NCBI GenBank assembly: GCA_963773065.1
Contig: CAVYZN010000018.1
Location: 1 to 28,870, forward strand
Reading direction: 5' to 3'
DNA length: 28,870 nucleotides
Source of the DNA: an uncultured Gammaproteobacteria bacterium
Lineage (GTDB): Bacteria; Pseudomonadota; Gammaproteobacteria; UBA9214
The notes beneath the pieces were generated by a model. That model saw only the letters and a program-made list of their open reading frames with translations, searched no databases and had not been told where the DNA came from. Positions 1 to 28,287 of the stretch are shown in pieces. Numbering within the stretch: the stretch's first letter is position 1; the number at the start of each line of letters is the position of its first letter. Made by a program: the position numbers and the translations under genes.

Positions 1-127
1 CCATTTTCAACTTCCGCCCAGAACCGGGCCGGAATCTACGGGCGCGGTGGAACAGCGGGAGAGTGATTAGCCGGTATGGGCGGTAACCGGCAAGGCCGGC
101 CGTGGTTAACCGAAGGAGGAGAAGATA

Positions 128-433
128 ATGGCGCGGTACCCTGCGAGAATACGGGCGCTATCGGGTATGTTCGTCGTGCTTCTGGCCGTGCTGGCGTTCG
201 GGACGCTGTTTTACCGCATGGTCGGTTACATGGAGTCGATCACCGTATCGATCGGGCGCATGAGCGACGATGTGGCATCCATGAGCCGGGAGATGACGGC
301 GATGCGGGAATCCATGCAAAAGATGGAAAGTCATATGGAGCAGCTGGGTGCTACGATGGGACAAGGTGCCCGGGAGATGCAACGGGTCAATCCGCTGCGC
401 ATGATGGAAGGCATGTCCCCGGGTAAAAATTAA
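128..433 (+). CDS. Small single-pass membrane protein with Met-rich coiled coil, function unknown
   Basis: GGAGGA upstream of the ATG; hydrophobic segment at aa 11-29; Met/Ile/Val/Leu in 4-3 heptad register at aa 31-84. Confidence 0.75.
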   Translation: MARYPARIRALSGMFVVLLAVLAFGTLFYRMVGYMESITVSIGRMSDDVASMSREMTAMRESMQKMESHMEQLGATMGQGAREMQRVNPLRMMEGMSPGKN

Positions 434-456
434 TGTCCAGCCATAAAGAAATGAAC

Positions 457-609
457 TCACCGCAAAGGCGCACGACTGCAGGGAGCAGGAGGTAGGGCAC
501 CAAAAGTAGGCGCTTTAGGCGACGCATGGAGCAGTTACCGAAAGAACGCAAAGCTGTTTAAATGTTTTTGTTAATAAGTTTCTTCGCGATCTTTGCGTCT
601 CTGCGGTGA
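457..609. repeat. Palindromic REP-like element (TCACCGCAAAGGCGCAAAG type) interrupted by a 69-bp insert
   Basis: Removing 472-540 restores TCACCGCAAAGGCGCAAAGAACGCAAAG, which matches the reverse complement of 582-609 at 24/28 positions. A half-copy recurs at 28266-28287. Confidence 0.7.
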
Positions 610-691
610 AAATGGTGTTTATAGATGAACGCAAATTCGTATCCAGCCATTGTGAAGCCTATCGCGCGCGCAGGCGTGTTATGAAACAGGA

Positions 692-1385
692 ATGACGATG
701 TACTGGGAAGATCGTAAAAAGGAAGAGACGGGCGTTGGCCGGATGACGTGGTCGATCTGGTCTATCCGATCGACTGCCACTATCTGCCGGTCGATCACAA
801 CTATGCGTTGGGCCAGGCGGTCGTGCAGGTGCTGTCCTGGTTGCCGGATGAGGAGGGCGCCGGTGTGCATCCGATCCAGGTGGCGATCTCCGCGCATGGC
901 TGGGAGCGGCCCGCCGGCGCCGACGATCTGCTGCATCTGTCGAAGCGCACCCGCCTGGTGATCCGGGTTCCGCGCCATCGCGTGGACGACGCTAAGGCGC
1001 TCGTCGGTCAACGGCTCGATGTGCGCGGACAGCACCTGGTGATCACCGGGGAACCCGCCGTGAGACCACTGCTGCCGAATACCACCCTGTATTCCCGTAA
1101 CGTGGCACTGGGCGCGGATGACGAGGACGGTTTCCTGCAGCGCGGCGGCGGACCTGCTGCAGCGGCTGGACATCCTGGTGCGCAAGATGCTGCCCGGCAG
1201 GGCCGGCGTGATCAGCACGCCGGACGGTCCGCTCACCACCCGCAGCCTGATGGTGGCCGATCTCGCCGCGGAGGAATCCCTCCGCCTGCAGCGGCACGGC
1301 CTGGGATCCCTGCCGCTATTTCGGTTGCGGGCTGTTCGTTCCCTACAAGGGGATCAAGGCCGTCAACCGGCAGTCGGAAGAGTAG
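692..1385 (+). CDS. cas6: Cas6 family endoribonuclease (type I-MYXAN Cas6/Cmx6-like), standalone; three apparent frameshifts
   Basis: Stitched frames read MYWED...PDDVVDLVYPIDCHYLPVDHNYAL...LLHLSKRTRLVIRVP...RSLMVADLAAEESLRLQRHGLGSCRYFGCGLFVPYK...EE*. LPxDH motif and C-terminal Gly-rich loop of Cas6 are present. Shifts near 738, 1146 and 1309. Confidence 0.85.
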
Positions 1386-1611
1386 ATCGCACGCGGCGAC
1401 ATGCATTCGTGCCTGGCGGCTGCCAGGTCGCCAGAGGGCCGGCTTGCCGGTCTGAAGTGCTATGAAGGCCATATTCCCGTTGACTTACCATGATTATGTT
1501 ACTGAATAACCCGTCGTTCGGCATTGCTTGTGTCATGATTAAGAGTAGGTAAAGCAACACGGTACCGGCGCCTGCCTGAAATTGTCGTTTTACATTGCCG
1601 GGGTGATCCGA

Positions 1612-2075
1612 GTGGAAAACTTTTTCCAATGGCGTCAGGAATGGACCCTCGATCCAGGAAATCTGGATGAACAGCACCGGATGCTGGTGGATGCGGTCAA
1701 CAAACTCGCCCCGCTTTACATGAAGGTGATCAGCAATGCGAAAGACAACAGCGCTTCCAGGGAGCAACTCACCGGGCTGCTGAGCCTTTTATACGGCCAC
1801 ATCGAACAGCATTTCCGTGACGAAGAGAAACTGATGCTGGAGTCGGCCTATCCCAGTCATAAAAGCCACGCACACGCGCATGTCATGCTCCTGGCGGAGT
1901 TGAAGAATTACTGCAACCGGATCACGAGCCGTGATGAAGAACTGGATATGGGACGCTGTATTCGCTCAAGACCTGGTTTATCACGCACATGCTGGACGAC
2001 AGGGAATTCGCCTCGCATTTCCATGCAACCCGGACCGGCGATGAATTCAACGGGCAACGCGGCGGCCGGTGCTGA
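1612..2075 (+). CDS. Bacteriohemerythrin (single domain); one frameshift near 1950
   Basis: W...LDEQH, HFRDEE and YP...HAHAH are present; after the shift the frame reads LKTWFITHMLDDREFA, completing the di-iron ligand set. GTG start at 1612 is inferred. Confidence 0.85.
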
Positions 2076-2112
2076 CTTATGATCCGCAATAAATTGTGGC
2101 GTCAATGAAGTG

Positions 2113-2148
2113 AAAACGGGCCTGGATCTTTAGCAATCCAGGCCCGTT
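2113..2148 (-). terminator. Rho-independent terminator between convergent genes
   Basis: Perfect 13-bp stem AACGGGCCTGGAT / ATCCAGGCCCGTT with an 8-nt loop and a short T run on the minus strand, 16 bp after the stop at 2165. Confidence 0.75.
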
Positions 2149-2164
2149 CCTGCCGGTTCACCGC

Positions 2165-4588
2165 TCAGGGCGTTTGGAGCCGGTTTCGCAGGTTGGGGTC
2201 GAACAGGTCCCCGCCATTCGGCAGGCACAGATCACTCCGTCCGTCGGCCGTATAACCGCCGGCGCCGCTGGCCGGTATCACCGCCGTGATGTCGTCCGCG
2301 CGGCCGTCGAGGTTATCATCGGAGGCCGTGTGACCGTTCGGCACGAACAATTGGGGGTGATCGAACGGCGCCTGGTCGCACTGCACCCGTGGATCGGTCA
2401 GTGTTTTCATGAAGGCCACCAGCGCGTCAATCTGCGCGTCGGTCGACTTGACGTCCCTGATGAAGAAGTCGACGTTCGTGCCGAAATCGGGGCCGGCAAG
2501 CGGCGCGGTGTCCTGGCCGAGCGGCCCCGTTCCCGAGGTGTCCCCGGTGTATGCCGAGTTAATCAGGCTCTTGTCCCGGCGACTTCCCCCGCGGGCGTAG
2601 AACTGCGTCTACCGATTTCAGGTCGCTGTAGTTGCCCGAGTGGAAGTAGGGCGGTGTCAGCGCCACGTTGCGCAGCGACGGCGTCTTGAAGGTCCCGTCC
2701 ACAAGATTCAGCTCGGTGTGTCCAGTTGAAACCAGGATTGACCGTACCACCCGTACACGGGTATGACGGCGTGCCACCGCCCTCGATGAGGGGATTGTTG
2801 ACACAGGGATTGATGCCGGTCGGGTCCACGACCTGCCCAAGCTGTTCGGCAACAAACATGCGCGCGGCCGAGAGCGTATTGCCGTGAATATCGAAACCAC
2901 CGGCCCCCGGGTCGAAACTCGCCGGCGTAACGCCGATATTGAAGAAGCCGCGATCGTGCACGCCGCCACACTGGTAAAGATTAGTCGTTGCGTTGAAGGT
3001 GCAATTAGCGCCTATTCCCCCCGGCGGACTGGCGTGGTCGATGCGGGATCGCTCGACCGGCACGAAGGTCTCGCCAGCCAGGAACTGTGCTTCGGAGAAC
3101 GTCGGGAAGACCAGCGGGTTCGCGAGCGGGTTTGTCACCGGATGGCAACCGCTGCAGGCTCGGGTTGCCGGGTTGCCTGATCCCCGTACCCCCGTTGTTG
3201 AACAAGCCGAAGCCCAGCACTTCCTGCGCGGTGAAACCCCCAAACTGGGGATCCGTGGGCGGGACGGGGCTGGTGAAGTGCCGTCCGGCAGAGCTGGCAG
3301 GTAACCACCGGGTCCCGGATGGGCACTAACACGGTAGCGTTACCGCCAGGGTTTGTGACGCGCGGAAGACAGCTCGCGAACCAGGTATCGAACTTGCTTT
3401 GATCGGATACCAGCGTCGCCTCGTACATCATGATGGCGATACCCCAGAACGCGGAGAAATTGTGTTCCATCTGGGTGTGGCCATTCATCCCGGTGCCCTT
3501 CTGCAATTGTCCGTCGGCCGTGATCTGGTAGCGGCCGGTGGCCTTCCAGTACTTGTCCTCAAACGCCAGTTTGATCAGCTTGTCGTAGCGGTAGGCCGGA
3601 GCCAGACCCTGTCCTGATTTATCGCGCAGAGCGCCGAGCACGCTGTCCTGGGCATGCACTTGTTGCTGACTCAACGGTCTTCTCAGCAGCAGCCGGCGCC
3701 CGACATCGGCGAAGGCGCGCCCCTCACAGGACATCTCCAGCTCGCTGAGCGGCGGGCCCACCGCCTGCGAGGCGAGGCTGGCGTTTTGAACCTGCAGATA
3801 ACCCAGCTCCGGTTTGCCGGCGCCATTGAGGACGATCAGCCGTTTACTGGGATCGGCCGCGATGTCCCGCGGGCCGAAAACATCGACGCCGTTGAATATC
3901 CTGTTGGCGCGGCCATCCCAGAAGTTACGGTCGTTGAATACCGCATTGATCGTGGTCGGCGTGTTGCGCGGCTCGACCATCCGGGAGGGAAATACGCCGG
4001 CATGGAAGATCGCGGCGCTGGGGTTGCCGCACCTGTCGTTGAGTCCCATCATGCGTCTGACCCGGTCGAAATCGCTGTCAAACGAGCCGGAGGACGAGGC
4101 CACGTCGTCGGTGGTAATCTCGAGCGGAGAGTTTCGGTTCTTGTAGTCCGTGAGCGAGTGGAAGGGAAAATCCGCGGCTTTCAGCTCGTAGGTGCCGTCG
4201 ATGTCGGTTGCTCCCGACTTCGTCCGCCCCGTGTTGCGGGCGCGTCAAGGGTTCACCGTCATAATCGGCGATATTGCCAAAGGCCGGTATCGGCCGTGGG
4301 CAGTTTTTACAGGCCGGGACTCAACTGATTGCGGATGCGGCTATCGGCGCCCGCGCTGAAGTGACAGCTTGCGCAGGCCTGGCCTTCGCTGCCGGCCTGT
4401 ATATCCCAGAACAGGGCCTTTCCCAACGCGATCGCCATTTGCTTGTTCTTGATGATTCCTGCTCCCACCGCGAGCTGCGGCGATACCGGCGGCAGTAAGC
4501 TGGATTGCACCAGTGGAGCCACCAGCAATCCTGTCGTGATAATGAATGTCGAACTCAGAATTATTGATCGTATGTGTAGCGTTTGCAT
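2165..4588 (-). CDS. Exported di-heme cytochrome c peroxidase/MauG family protein; several frameshifts
   Basis: Signal-like N-terminus MQTLHIRS... after AAGGGG; motifs LGKALFWD, CASCH, RNTPTTINAVFN, FWDGRA, CSGCH, FKTPSLRNVALTPPYFHSG and AFMKTLTDPRV..QAPFDHP, spread over several frames. Confidence 0.85.
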
Positions 4589-4884
4589 TGTTGTCCCCTT
4601 TCTCTCATGGTTGTTTTGCAAGCCATCCAGGCCTGCGGACATTATCGTGTCCCCGATGCTATAGGCCACCGACTATGGGTGGCGGCGGTCTTCATTTTCC
4701 GGAAGGCATTCAAAAGCAGGGGGACCGTCATCGTTAATTTCCCTTCGTTCTCGTTAAATTCCGTTTTTTCCTATTCCCTTTGATCGTTTTGTTATGGTCG
4801 TTTTTTGAGTTTGGCAAAGACTGCCCATCAATTCAATCTTTGTTGGCCTTCAAGACGTGATTTATCGCTCCAATCGAGTTTTTA

Positions 4885-4900
4885 TACGTAGTTTTACGTA
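4885..4900. promoter_or_regulatory. Candidate operator TACGTA-N4-TACGTA
   Basis: Dyad-symmetric 16-mer within a 10-bp-period repeat (ttatacgtag/ttttacgtag/ttttccgtgg) in the AT-rich region upstream of the di-heme gene. Confidence 0.4.
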
Positions 4901-5005
4901 GTTTTCCGTGGATATTGGTCAATGGGGGCAGACTCGATTGATCGTGAATTTCCAGTTAGCCACTGCATAATGAGGGATCAATCGAGTCTGACCTCATTGA
5001 CACCA

Positions 5006-6698
5006 TTACAGGACCACCGTCGCTGCCACCGTTCCCGCACGGTCGTGTTTCGCGCTCAAGCGGAGACTCATGCCGGCGGTGGCGCGCACCAACCACTCCA
5101 CCCGCAGACGATCATCGGTCACGTCGGCGGCCTGCCCGGCCCAGCCCGAGGGCGAGGAGGGTTTACCGGAACGGCCCTCGAGCTGTCCCAGCACCTTGCG
5201 CGGCGGGTCGCCAATCAGCGTTGCGCCCTCCGGCAGTTCGATCTCGCAGACCACGCCGCGCACCAGCTTGCGGTCGCGGGCGTGCCGGGTGAGATCGGTG
5301 GGCAGCCAGCCGCTGTTCTGCACCACGCACCACACGCGGAAGGTGTCGGGCGATACCGCCACCGCGCCGCTTTGCAGCAGCTCCAGGCGCGGGAAGATCA
5401 GGTTGTGCCAGACCAGCCAGCGCGGCAGCCGGTCGATCTCCTCCCGCAACAATTGCGGTGGCGGGTTCCAGAACGAGTACAGCGGATTCCAGCCACCCAG
5501 CTCGACGTGCCCCAGTTGCGGATGCTCCCAGGGATACCAGTCGATGTAGCCCTGTCCCTGCAGCGCCGTGTCGCTCCAGGCGAGCAGCTTGAGATCGTCG
5601 GCGAGTGGGTGTTCGCGGTACCAGTCGATGAACTTGTATTCCCCGATCCCGGCCTGGCGCTGCGGGCTCCAGAGTTCCACCGTCCAGGCGAACAGGCCGA
5701 GTTCCTCGTAGAGCCAGTCGTCCATGGCGCCAGTGATGACTTGCTGCGGGTGATAGCGGAACTCGTGGTAGGCGGAGATCGCGGGATAGCCGGTCAGCGC
5801 ATGGCCCTGTGCGCCGATCTTCTGGAACGCCCACAGGTCCTCGACCGGCATCTGCTCGTCCGCCTGATAGGAATAGGGGCGCAGCAGGACGCCGCTGTAG
5901 GAGTGCAGGGCGATGCCGGCGCAGACGTTGCGGTGCCGGGCGACGAAGTCGACCAGGGCATGCACCTCGGGCTCGGAGGTCGGGTAGCCTCCCGCCCCCT
6001 GCTGCTCGTGTTCACCGCGCCAGCGTCCGGGGAAGTTGCGGTTGAGGTCCAGGGTTTCCTTGCGCGGCTGCAGGGTGATGGTGCTGCCGTCGTAGTTTTC
6101 CAGCCGGCCCTCCGGCAGCAGGCGGTAGTAGTCGCCGCCGGTTTCCGCCGGCTCGCGCCGCACCAGCAGGCGCGGCTCCTCCGGGCACGCCTTCCAGGGG
6201 CCGTTGGGATCGGCGATGCGCATGCTCAGGATGCGCCCGTCGCCGTCGATGTCCTCGGTCATCAGCCCGCCGACGGGTGTCTCCTCGAACGGATAGGGGC
6301 GGGTGCTGGAGCGGATCAGCTTCGGGATGTCCGCGAGCGCCCATTCGGCGCCGTCCGGATTCGCCCGCGGGCAGATGTAGAAGGCGCGGCTGTCGAGGCA
6401 GCGGGTCACCTCCGGGTCCGTGCGCATAGCCGCTCAAGAGGTGGTCGATGAGCCGCAACGCGGCGGCCGAGGCCACCAGCTCGGCGCTATGGATGTTGGC
6501 ATCGACCCACAGCGCCGGCTTGTCCGTGTCCGGGCCGGTCGCGAAGCGGGTGATCGTGACCAGCCAGATGTCGCGACCCTCGAAGCTCTTGCCGATGCTC
6601 TGCAGTCGCGCCAGCCCGGGGTGGCGCGCCGTGTAGTCGTGCAGCACCCGGGTGAGTTCGTCGTAGCGGTAATAGGTATCGAAACGGGCAGCTTCCAC
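5006..6698 (-). CDS. M14 family zinc carboxypeptidase; one frameshift near 6424
   Basis: AAGGAG RBS and GTG start; IGKSFEGRDI, zinc motif HSAE, NPDG, DLNRNF, SEPE and LHSY; joins ORFs 6012..6698 and 5006..6427. Confidence 0.9.
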
Positions 6699-18005: not shown

Positions 18006-18043
18006 CACCCAATCACAATTCCGCCGCGCGGGGTCCTCGCCTC

Positions 18044-18222
18044 AGAGCCTGTGAAAATATCGACGGCCGTCGCGAGGGCGTCGATTGGCGTGCGAGGCAA
18101 GGCGCGCTGCGCGAAAACAAGGGAGTTTGGCGAGCCAAATGACCGAAGTTTTCGCGTGGCGCAACGCCGCCGCAGCCGCAAAGCGGCGTCCGCAGCAGGC
18201 TGGCGATATTTTCACAGGCTCT
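18044..18222. mobile_element. MITE-like non-autonomous element
   Basis: Perfect 19-bp terminal inverted repeats AGAGCCTGTGAAAATATCG / CGATATTTTCACAGGCTCT; no transposase; no exact target duplication visible. Confidence 0.8.
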
Positions 18223-18599
18223 TAGCTCAGGTCGATGGCATGCGCCTTCAGATCGGCCAGCGCAACCACCTCGAGTGTCCGCGCGTGGGTGGCGCGCAGG
18301 CACACATGAGATGCGCAACCGGCCTCCAATGCCTCTTTCCAGCGCGCCGCGCATACACACCAGCGGTCACCGGGCTTGAGGCCGGGAAACCCGAATTCCG
18401 GCATGGGCGTGACCAGGTCGTTGCCATGTGCCCGGCTGTAATCCAGGAAGGCCTGCGTCACGTTGGCGCACACGGTGTGCACGCCCGGATCCTGTGGCCC
18501 GGTTTCGCAGGACCCCGTGCGGGTATAGCCGGTCAGCGGTCGCAGGGAACAGGTTTCCAGCGGTTCTCCCAGTACGTTTTTCTGTTCGATAGCGTTCAT
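18222..18599 (-). CDS. DUF2237 family protein
   Basis: NVLGEPLETCS..PLTGY.R.G.C, GNDL.TP.PEFGFPGLKPGDRWCVCA.RW.EA and LRATH. Confidence 0.93.
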   Translation of the reverse strand: MNAIEQKNVLGEPLETCSLRPLTGYTRTGSCETGPQDPGVHTVCANVTQAFLDYSRAHGNDLVTPMPEFGFPGLKPGDRWCVCAARWKEALEAGCASHVCLRATHARTLEVVALADLKAHAIDLS

Positions 18600-28091: not shown

Positions 28092-28133
28092 AGCGGGTGA
28101 ATGCGTGCTGACCTAGATGATTCCATCATCGAT

Positions 28134-28261
28134 GTAGGGCGAGTTAGGTACGCCGTTTGTGCCGTAACCCGCCAACTGTGCCGGCAGGCACTCATTAAAA
28201 AACGCATTGTGTTGCTGCGCAACGCCTGGCGGGTTACGCAAAATACGCTAACCCACCCTAC
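28134..28261. repeat. GTAG-type REP doublet (REPIN-like) between convergent genes
   Basis: GTAGGGCGAGTTAG...CGTAACCCGCCA (28134-28174) and the inverted TGGCGGGTTACG...CTAACCCACCCTAC (28227-28261). Confidence 0.85.
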
Positions 28262-28265
28262 AATT

Positions 28266-28287
28266 CTTTGCGTCTTTGCGGTGAAAA
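28266..28287. repeat. Half-copy of the CACCGCAAAG palindromic repeat
   Basis: CTTTGCGTCTTTGCGGTGAAAA matches 591-612 at 21/22 positions. Confidence 0.75.

Follow-up and report, generated by a model that had tools for sequence, protein, structure and literature searches.

A Cas6-like gene spread over three frames

The stretch of DNA studied here, referred to below as the window, is 28,870 nucleotides long and comprises the entire contig C18 (1-28870) of the assembly G000, from an uncultured member of the Gammaproteobacteria; the left end of the window is the end of the contig. Close to this end, at 692..1385 on the forward strand, lies a Cas6-like gene (PF09559) of about 230 codons, recognized by profile matches and spread over three frames by three single-base indels. 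Our data show that it belongs to a Cas6 branch that is tied to sulfur oxidation rather than to CRISPR (short palindromic repeats, clustered and regularly interspaced), and that this is a distinct branch associated with the dsr genes.

Reading the forward frames of 651-1470 gives one Cas6-like protein with its start at 692 and its stop at 1385; the conserved start of the family corresponds to the second methionine of this product. PF09559 matches the gene in pieces, with 108.2 bits on 739-1140 (model positions 1-121), 52.6 bits on 1139-1312 (122-177) and a weak 11.7 bits (E 0.26, 179-190) on 1308-1382, the last 25 residues. An LPVDH motif is present, as is a C-terminal glycine-rich stretch, the latter in the third frame. 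An earlier reading of the letters alone (the sequence-only reading) had described a Cas6 with precisely these two marks, and the PF09559 matches bear it out. The TIGR02807 profile (Cas6/Cmx6) scores 72.5 and 21.7 bits on the pieces of the window, each below its cut-off of 98.85 bits. The gene is not alone in the assembly: an intact copy encoding 230 amino acids (aa) lies on another contig, at C19:53870-54562, its DNA 92.5% identical to the window gene. The intact copy matches PF09559 with 197.9 bits and TIGR02807 with 125.1 bits, the latter above the 98.85-bit cut-off.

The frame breaks are most likely assembly errors

The G000 assembly consists of 33 contigs totalling 3.84 Mb, with an estimated completeness of 90.9% and contamination of 6.3%. 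The window is colinear with C19:24297-54581 at 89-96% identity, bar a few inserted or deleted blocks. Within the aligned blocks of the two contigs there are 114 indels, 70 of them single-base and mostly surplus bases in C18; C19 frames of 910 and 603 aa correspond to seven and four frame pieces on C18, respectively, at 90-98% protein identity. Other contigs are frame-broken too, in dsrA on C27 (around 23440) and in the gene for isoleucyl-tRNA synthetase (IleRS) on C10, and further small contigs (C24, C25, C29/C30, C20 and C10) parallel parts of larger ones at 92-97% identity. The assembly is an indel-prone consensus of at least two related strains, in which C18 is a strain-variant contig and not a paralogous block. 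Open-frame coverage per contig was uninformative as a measure of error in this GC-rich genome.

Alignment with the intact C19 copy places the three breaks, all on the forward strand, at 731..733 (one base missing at 732), 1139..1141 (one extra base at 1141) and 1306..1308 (one extra base at 1308, in a C run). To these we aligned independent short-read contigs of four metagenome runs (X1-X4), over positions 500-2200 of the window; cover is uneven between runs, X1 for example lacking 671-1126. The extra base at 1139-1141 is missing from the contigs of both covering runs (X2 and X3), and that at 1306-1308 from those of all four. At 731 one of the three runs that reach the site is corrected, with the X3 contig adding a base behind 731; the X2 contig has one gap somewhere over 682-788, its position not given, and the X4 piece stops at 732. 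A further break near 1949, in the downstream hemerythrin gene, is likewise repaired, a base being added behind 1949 in three of three covering runs. One 982-nucleotide (nt) contig covers 593-1486 with 37 letter differences and 10 gaps, including flanks that are absent from C19; since it extends past the stretch shared with C19, a C18-type locus with an open frame exists in a close relative. The copies of the gene in C19 and in the loci L006, L007 and L040 align with each other free of gaps, and the ratio of nonsynonymous to synonymous substitution rates (dN/dS) between the C18 and C19 copies is 0.30 (229 codons, 22 amino-acid differences).

On the strength of the contig-wide one-base indels and of the independent contigs that read through, we consider it highly probable that the three frameshifts are assembly errors. 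The sequence-only reading was right that the frame is broken three times; its picture of a gene hidden by these breaks is not supported, the pattern being contig-wide, and confirmation of the frameshifts by reads, which would have marked the gene as decayed, was not seen, the contigs at 1139 and 1306 and one of three at 731 lacking the indel. A window copy that is a decaying relic, with real frameshifts and a working gene only in the C19-type strain, would agree with the presence of the indels in the deposited sequence and with the position of two of the three outside homopolymer runs. The independent contigs, moreover, are 90-99% alike and come from relatives or other samples, so that their origin in the same strain is unproven. 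We nevertheless judge such a relic improbable: one-base indels occur at equal density across the whole of C18, including long conserved genes, and on other contigs; an entire 29-kb block of pseudogenes is unlikely; and both the dN/dS value and the contigs that read through at 1139, 1306 and, in one case, 731 argue for a working frame. A real, recent inactivation in the C18 strain, which would tell against our reading, we hold to be similarly improbable. In nature the window's protein would then be intact, C18 probably deriving from a second related strain that was binned into the same genome.

The gene family follows dsr

Of 1,647 candidates in a search with the intact protein, 920 proved to be relatives at E <= 0.001; the 120 relatives listed are mostly 226-244 aa long, a few having lengths between 186 and 252 aa. 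Against a library of 50%-identity representatives, 1,006 clusters matched at E <= 0.001 and 136 at E <= 1e-30. The gene is present in 38 of 61 relatives (G000 counted), and DevR in none of the 61. Within the organism's own family it occurs in 30 of 36 genomes, nearly always as a single open copy, and Cas1 in one of the 36.

We then examined 301 genomes sampled in equal measure from the families that make up the class, among them G075 and G177, both non-carriers, and scored dsrA as present when the best TIGR02064 match reached E <= 1e-35. The cas6-like gene was found in 92 of these genomes and dsrA in 93; 88 have both, four the cas6-like gene only and five dsrA only. A single contig holds both genes in 66 of the 88, at a distance of 0.7-4.5 kb. 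For the other 26 carriers 19 contexts were examined, giving 85 contexts in total (66 + 19). Fourteen of the 19 lie in a module of dsrQ, a 65-aa open reading frame (ORF) and a DsrC-like gene, among them three of the four carriers that lack a dsrA match, whose contigs stop at this point; one, in G057, is a full I-MYXAN cas operon; and four are elsewhere (G000, G058, G187 and G266). Overall, dsr or dsrQ neighbourhoods account for 80 of the 85 contexts and a cas operon for one. Of the 301 genomes 116 have Cas1, as do 45 of the 92 carriers, leaving about half of the carriers without it. The gene, in its standard order, is kept even in the 1.1-Mb genome G223. These observations strongly uphold the statement of the sequence-only reading that similar solo Cas6 genes occur near sulfur-relay genes in sulfur oxidizers: 88 of 92 carriers have dsrA, and 66 of the 88 have it within 4.5 kb. 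It counts against the association that kin are not independent, so that the co-occurrence counts overstate its statistical weight, and that many assemblies are incomplete; the counts are for this reason preferred here to Fisher values. A phylum-level sample, in which two of 201 genomes were carriers, consisted mainly of further families from this class and carries little weight.

A recurring order appears in the gene maps of 16 loci: dsrK-M-C-H-F-E-B-A on one strand, a divergent TauD/TfdA-family gene and then the cas6-like gene, which is followed by a DsrC/TusE-like gene, three 2-oxoglutarate (2OG)-Fe(II) oxygenase genes, small unknown genes and a gene of the DUF6866/Sfum_1244 family. The tauD-like gene upstream of dsrAB is the 'dsrQ' noted by Lenk et al. 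(2012), according to the relevant passage of Loffler et al. (2020; PMC7596348). The usual operon, divergent from dsrAB, thus reads dsrQ (tauD-like), a conserved 65-aa ORF and the cas6-like gene. The small ORF (64-69 aa), which overlaps the stop of dsrQ, terminates some 20 nt ahead of the cas6-like start; tblastn returned 48 rows for it over the 59 loci searched, some of which overlap, and it matches no Pfam family. Examples are found at L039:7726-7923, L029:7706-7915 and C27:25667-25858 of G000.

Across 38 sequences the 65-aa ORF shows ten invariant residues, and even the 1.1-Mb genome retains it. In some families a 235-aa gene (c22) is found at this position, and a comparison of the two gave no similarity. 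The DsrC/TusE-like gene that adjoins the cas6-like gene (L029:9178-9516, L039:8921-9259 and, in G000, C27:26130-26465) differs from the DsrC of the dsr operon: its product has no cysteine in the C-terminal arm and carries a conserved basic Gly-Gly-Tyr tail.

A divergent clade member and the loss of the resident copy

To place the window's protein we built a maximum-likelihood tree of 79 proteins by a quick search, with support from the Shimodaira-Hasegawa-like approximate likelihood ratio test (SH-aLRT) only, rooted on CRISPR-type proteins of about 195 aa that came from a search with the G057 protein. In the tree a branch with SH-aLRT 100 divides 21 CRISPR-type proteins from 58 of the dsr-type. 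The window's type comprises 18 proteins, including those of C19, L006, L007 and G002, with support of 100 and a stem of 0.57, and falls within the dsr-type side. Its sister (support 91) is a group with the dsr-linked protein of G054, not the dsr-linked proteins of the organism's own family, and it is 47-49% identical to the dsr-linked protein of the congener G001.

The G000 genome has a dsr locus of its own, at C27:17950-26465, with dsrABEFHCMK, dsrQ, the 65-aa ORF (86% identical to that of G001) and the DsrC-like gene. In the slot of the cas6-like gene, about 630 nt are replaced by about 66 nt compared with G001, and the last codons remain; this remnant of a deleted dsr-linked gene lies at C27:25881-26001 (L066), between the 65-aa ORF and the DsrC-like gene. 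Similar C-terminal remnants are seen in the congeners G002 (C58) and G003 (C221), both of which have the window's type, while G001 has the dsr-linked gene and lacks the window's type.

The window's and C19's copies stand outside the dsrQ / 65-aa ORF / cas6-like operon, and that the window's type does not adjoin dsr genes counts against our reading of it; because of this distance, it is phylogeny and the deleted resident copy that tie it to the pathway. On the simplest reading of the comparison, the genome gained a divergent member of the clade, or such a member changed its place, after which the resident copy was lost. This would imply a function that is selected for and able to act in trans, and the window's type would presumably supply that function in the place of the lost copy.

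Surroundings of the window-type gene

Loci of the window's type have their own order, namely a 1,440-aa protein, a 101-aa ORF, the cas6-like gene and a hemerythrin gene, which is complete in L007 and partly visible in C18, C19, L006 and L040. In the window, the 101-aa ORF lies at 128..433 on the forward strand and encodes one hydrophobic segment, at the N-terminus; it matches no Pfam family above cut-off and is a conserved upstream neighbour, with homologues upstream of the window-type gene in L006, L007 and L040 (cut by the contig end in L040). The hemerythrin-domain gene (PF01814, 32 bits) is at 1582..2076 on the forward strand, frame-broken near 1949; hemerythrin is found downstream in three of five window-type loci, with homologues after the gene in L007 and L040. 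The sequence-only reading, which had set the gene between a membrane protein and a hemerythrin, is matched by this ORF with its hydrophobic segment and by the PF01814 domain. Between the 101-aa ORF and the cas6-like gene, at 434..633 (no strand assigned), an inserted repeat element resembles stretches of C11 and C32; it is absent at that place in L006, lies outside the conserved surroundings of the gene and has a very high summed contig depth in metagenomes.

The 1,440-aa protein, with C-terminal membrane segments, is encoded at C19:54590-58912 (L045:10591-14913, minus strand), directly upstream of the intact copy. It matched no Pfam or NCBIfam family, an Atlas search led to unnamed clusters only, and L007 has a homologue of it upstream of the small ORF. 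A scan of window positions 1-2400 for promoters and terminators gave nothing above shuffled sequence.

A 3.6-kb block of the window, 1400-5033, is absent from C19 and consists of the hemerythrin gene and frame-broken ORFs of the minus strand, among which a 226-aa ORF (2563-3243, minus strand) has no Pfam family. Two dispersed repeats lie further along the window: one of about 187 nt at 18039-18225, with at least 17 copies on other contigs, most of them 93-99% identical, and one of about 148 nt at 28119-28266, with at least 14 copies at 78-91%.

CRISPR elements in the genome

No CRISPR-like array was detected in the window, where five two-copy repeat families, none of them array-like, were found. 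Profiles for Cas1, Cas2, Cas3-HD, Cas5d, DevR/Cas7 and RAMP had no match in the whole assembly, which is 90.9% complete; each of the six matches in 2-7 of 14 control genomes. The absence of an array or cas gene from these 28.9 kb, which the sequence-only reading had put forward, thus holds in both the repeat scan and the profile search. A k-mer scan of the genome for arrays returned 13 candidate places, and those on C5, C9 and C10 were inspected singly; the candidates on C5 and C9 are coding tandem repeats with periods of 30 and 102 nt, and of these three contigs C10 alone is array-like. C10:23566-23902 holds a genuine, if small, array: five complete repeats of 37 nt, for which a 4-bp stem-loop is predicted. 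The array continues to 23950 with the start of a sixth repeat, and is flanked by group II intron reverse transcriptases.

The protein could be a canonical Cas6 that processes CRISPR RNA (crRNA) in trans, working on this array or with arrays and cas genes that lie in the 9% of the genome missing from the assembly. The outer bases of the C10 repeat, first and last, resemble those of the repeats beside a true Cmx6 operon in G057 (the full set Cmx6-Cas3-Cmx8-Cas7-Cas4/Cas1-Cas2 of type I-MYXAN, with 21 repeats), which weighs against a role away from CRISPR; the intact copy passes the TIGR02807 cut-off (125.1 versus 98.85 bits), and an assembly of 90.9% completeness leaves room for missing genes. 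Yet none of the six cas profiles matches in the assembly, and 16 ORFs scanned around the C10 array contain no cas family. The C10 repeat was not found in four congeners that carry the window's gene type or its dsr-linked relative, and C10 is itself a strain-variant contig. The distribution of the gene points the same way, with 30 of 36 genomes of the family carrying it against one of 36 with Cas1, and with 47 of the 92 carriers in the class sample lacking Cas1; in the tree, too, the protein clusters apart from the CRISPR-linked proteins. An array and a cas operon elsewhere in the genome was what the sequence-only reading had named as fatal to its view: the former exists, on C10, and none of the six cas families was found. 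With an array and none of these six families, a canonical role in trans is unlikely, and we put its probability very low. In our best explanation the protein stands outside any CRISPR-Cas system.

Fold, conserved residues and a proposed RNA role

An AlphaFold model of the intact copy (predicted local distance difference test, pLDDT, 87.6; predicted template-modelling score, pTM, 0.83) consists of two ferredoxin-like domains of the RNA recognition motif (RRM) kind in the Cas6 arrangement. Its best Foldseek matches are 8fcu_B and 8fcj_B, the Cas6 of a type I-B CRISPR-associated transposon (CAST) Cascade, with E 5e-17, TM scores of 0.73-0.78 and 25% identity, and the next are other Cas6 and Cse3 structures. 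By sequence, 8fcj_B is matched with E 8.4e-13 from the single sequence and 3.8e-39 from the family profile.

The glycine-rich loop of Cas6 proteins has the form G-h-G, five residues including a basic one, and again G-h-G, and a C-terminal loop of this kind, which characterizes the Cas6 superfamily, is present. In an alignment of 64 proteins, CRISPR-type and dsr-type together, His35 (of LPVDH), Gly69, Arg91, Gly105, Phe147, Gly202, Gly204, Gly210, Cys211 and Gly212 are invariant (64/64), and Leu203, Arg207 and Phe214 of the glycine-rich loop are at least 90% conserved. The dsr-type proteins carry an N-terminal extension and an insert that are absent from the CRISPR-type proteins. The preservation of these residues across so deep a split suggests that the stem-loop RNA binding of Cas6, and perhaps its cutting, has probably been kept.

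We therefore propose, as a reading that could as readily prove wrong as right, that the protein binds or cuts hairpin RNA in the service of the dsr module. By means of the glycine-rich loop and the conserved histidine and arginine residues it would bind to a particular RNA stem-loop and might cleave it, its putative targets being transcripts of the sulfur-oxidation module and not CRISPR repeats. The large, mostly single-copy clade of Cas6-like proteins of about 228 aa is inherited along with the oxidative dsr gene set. The sequence-only reading had likewise proposed a domesticated protein with an RNA-related role; the invariant His35, the glycine-rich loop and the predicted Cas6 fold are consistent with this, its function being our interpretation of them. 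Its further suggestion, that the protein acts on the palindromic repeats of the window, finds no support: the element at 434-633 is an insertion absent in L006, and the other repeats are multi-copy on many contigs while the gene follows dsr in its distribution.

A more specific version, which is possible and which we hold only tentatively, sees the dsr-type proteins as sequence-specific endoribonucleases derived from CRISPR that act on a hairpin in transcripts of the dsr / dsrQ module and in this way govern the amount or stoichiometry of the sulfur-oxidation machinery. One candidate target would be the partly palindromic, stem-loop-like motif TATCCC-N4-GGG, found in the dsrA-dsrQ spacer and again just behind the stop codon of the cas6-like gene, and the activity would be important enough for a 1.1-Mb genome to retain it and for a foreign copy to take over where the resident one is lost, as in G000. 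A looser palindrome of this kind is found in 11 of 15 dsrA-dsrQ spacers, and in loci of the organism's own family the motif stands 2-7 nt after the cas6-like stop; it also occurs beside the DsrC-like gene. The motif could equally be a DNA operator or an RNA hairpin. Individual sites lie in the dsrA-dsrQ spacers and in the 3' flanks of the cas6-like genes of L029-L039, L063, L064, L038 and L043; in G000 they are at C27:24434, 26014, 26481 and 31857, and three of the 24 matches in the genome fall within C27:26014-31857.

A number of results weigh against an RNA role of either kind. An RNA target was not found, no Rfam family being detected in the window or in six module loci; the sole Rfam matches are group II intron pieces on C19. 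TATCCC-N4-GGG is not enriched genome-wide, with 24 matches as compared to 11-36 for control patterns; its stem never varies, its orientation is inconsistent, and it is absent near the window's gene. In addition, the closest solved Cas6 has an asparagine at the position of His35, which implies that His35 may not be catalytic. The main rival to the RNA role is that the Cas6 fold has been re-used without RNA, the protein serving DsrQ, the 65-aa protein, the DsrC-like protein without cysteine and the 2OG-Fe(II) oxygenases as a structural or chaperone-like partner, in which case it would act in sulfur trafficking, protein modification or sensing. The embedding of the clade in a conserved protein-coding module agrees with this, as does the tight packing of the 65-aa ORF, which overlaps the dsrQ stop, ends about 20 nt before the cas6-like start and gave 48 tblastn rows over 59 partly overlapping loci. 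So, too, do the extension and insert that are the dsr-type clade's own, the failure of Rfam and motif tests to find an RNA element, and the missing histidine in the nearest solved Cas6. Against it stand the glycine-rich loop, Arg91, Arg207 and His35, all invariant or at least 90% conserved across both clades despite the long branch between them; such retention of the residues of RNA recognition would be unexpected if RNA binding had been given up. On balance we regard the partner without RNA as rather unlikely, and continue to favour a hairpin-RNA-binding protein.

Implications

The public names of proteins in this clade are 'type I-MYXAN CRISPR-associated protein Cas6/Cmx6' and 'CRISPR-associated protein Cas6'. 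As the clade follows dsr and not CRISPR, the Cas6/Cmx6 name over-reaches; and with 80 of 85 contexts at dsr or dsrQ and one at a cas operon, counts of 'CRISPR proteins' in sulfur oxidizers are inflated. For the evolution of CRISPR systems, the clade offers a clean case of a single Cas protein kept for a job other than defence. For sulfur metabolism, it adds a likely RNA-level player, a 65-aa protein and a cysteine-less DsrC-like protein to the poorly understood neighbourhood of dsrAB. Were the endoribonuclease proposal true, this would be the first solo Cas6 to serve a housekeeping pathway.

Comparison with known systems

The protein most resembles the Cas6/Cmx6 of type I-MYXAN systems (I-B-like; TIGR02807, PF09559), with which it shares the Pfam family, a TIGR02807 score of the intact copy above cut-off, the LPVDH motif, Arg91 and the glycine-rich loop. 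It differs from Cmx6 in forming a separate clade (SH-aLRT 100) and in its length of about 228 aa versus about 195 aa, which comes with the N-terminal extension and internal insert. Unlike Cmx6, it is not encoded with cmx8, cas7, cas5, cas3, cas1, cas2 or an array, and follows dsr instead; the window's protein neither resides in a cas operon beside an array nor groups with the CRISPR-linked members. It does fall inside the dsr-associated clade, in a genome with an oxidative dsr set, and lies outside the dsrQ operon. Among solved structures the best match in both sequence and fold is the Cas6 of the type I-B CAST Cascade (8fcj/8fcu chain B), which differs in sitting on a crRNA hairpin in Cascade, in having Asn for His35 and in lacking the insert that follows the first beta-alpha unit.

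The first gene of the cas6-like operon corresponds to the dsrQ of aerobic sulfur oxidizers, tauD-like and divergent from dsrA; the passage on tauD/dsrQ in PMC7596348 does not mention a Cas6-like gene or the 65-aa ORF. Our literature search, which covered few subscription papers, returned no paper on a link between Cas6-like genes and dsr, and a prior description is possible; a dsr-linked Cas6 likewise goes unmentioned in the Cas6 passages of a review of CRISPR exaptations (PMC8730458). In the parts of that review relevant here, Cas proteins outside working CRISPR-Cas systems are exemplified by the I-E-derived module of cas5-8 and a STAND NTPase in Streptomyces. Such modules are remnants of multi-subunit effectors with a predicted role in defence, whereas the case described here is that of a single Cas6 at a locus of energy metabolism.

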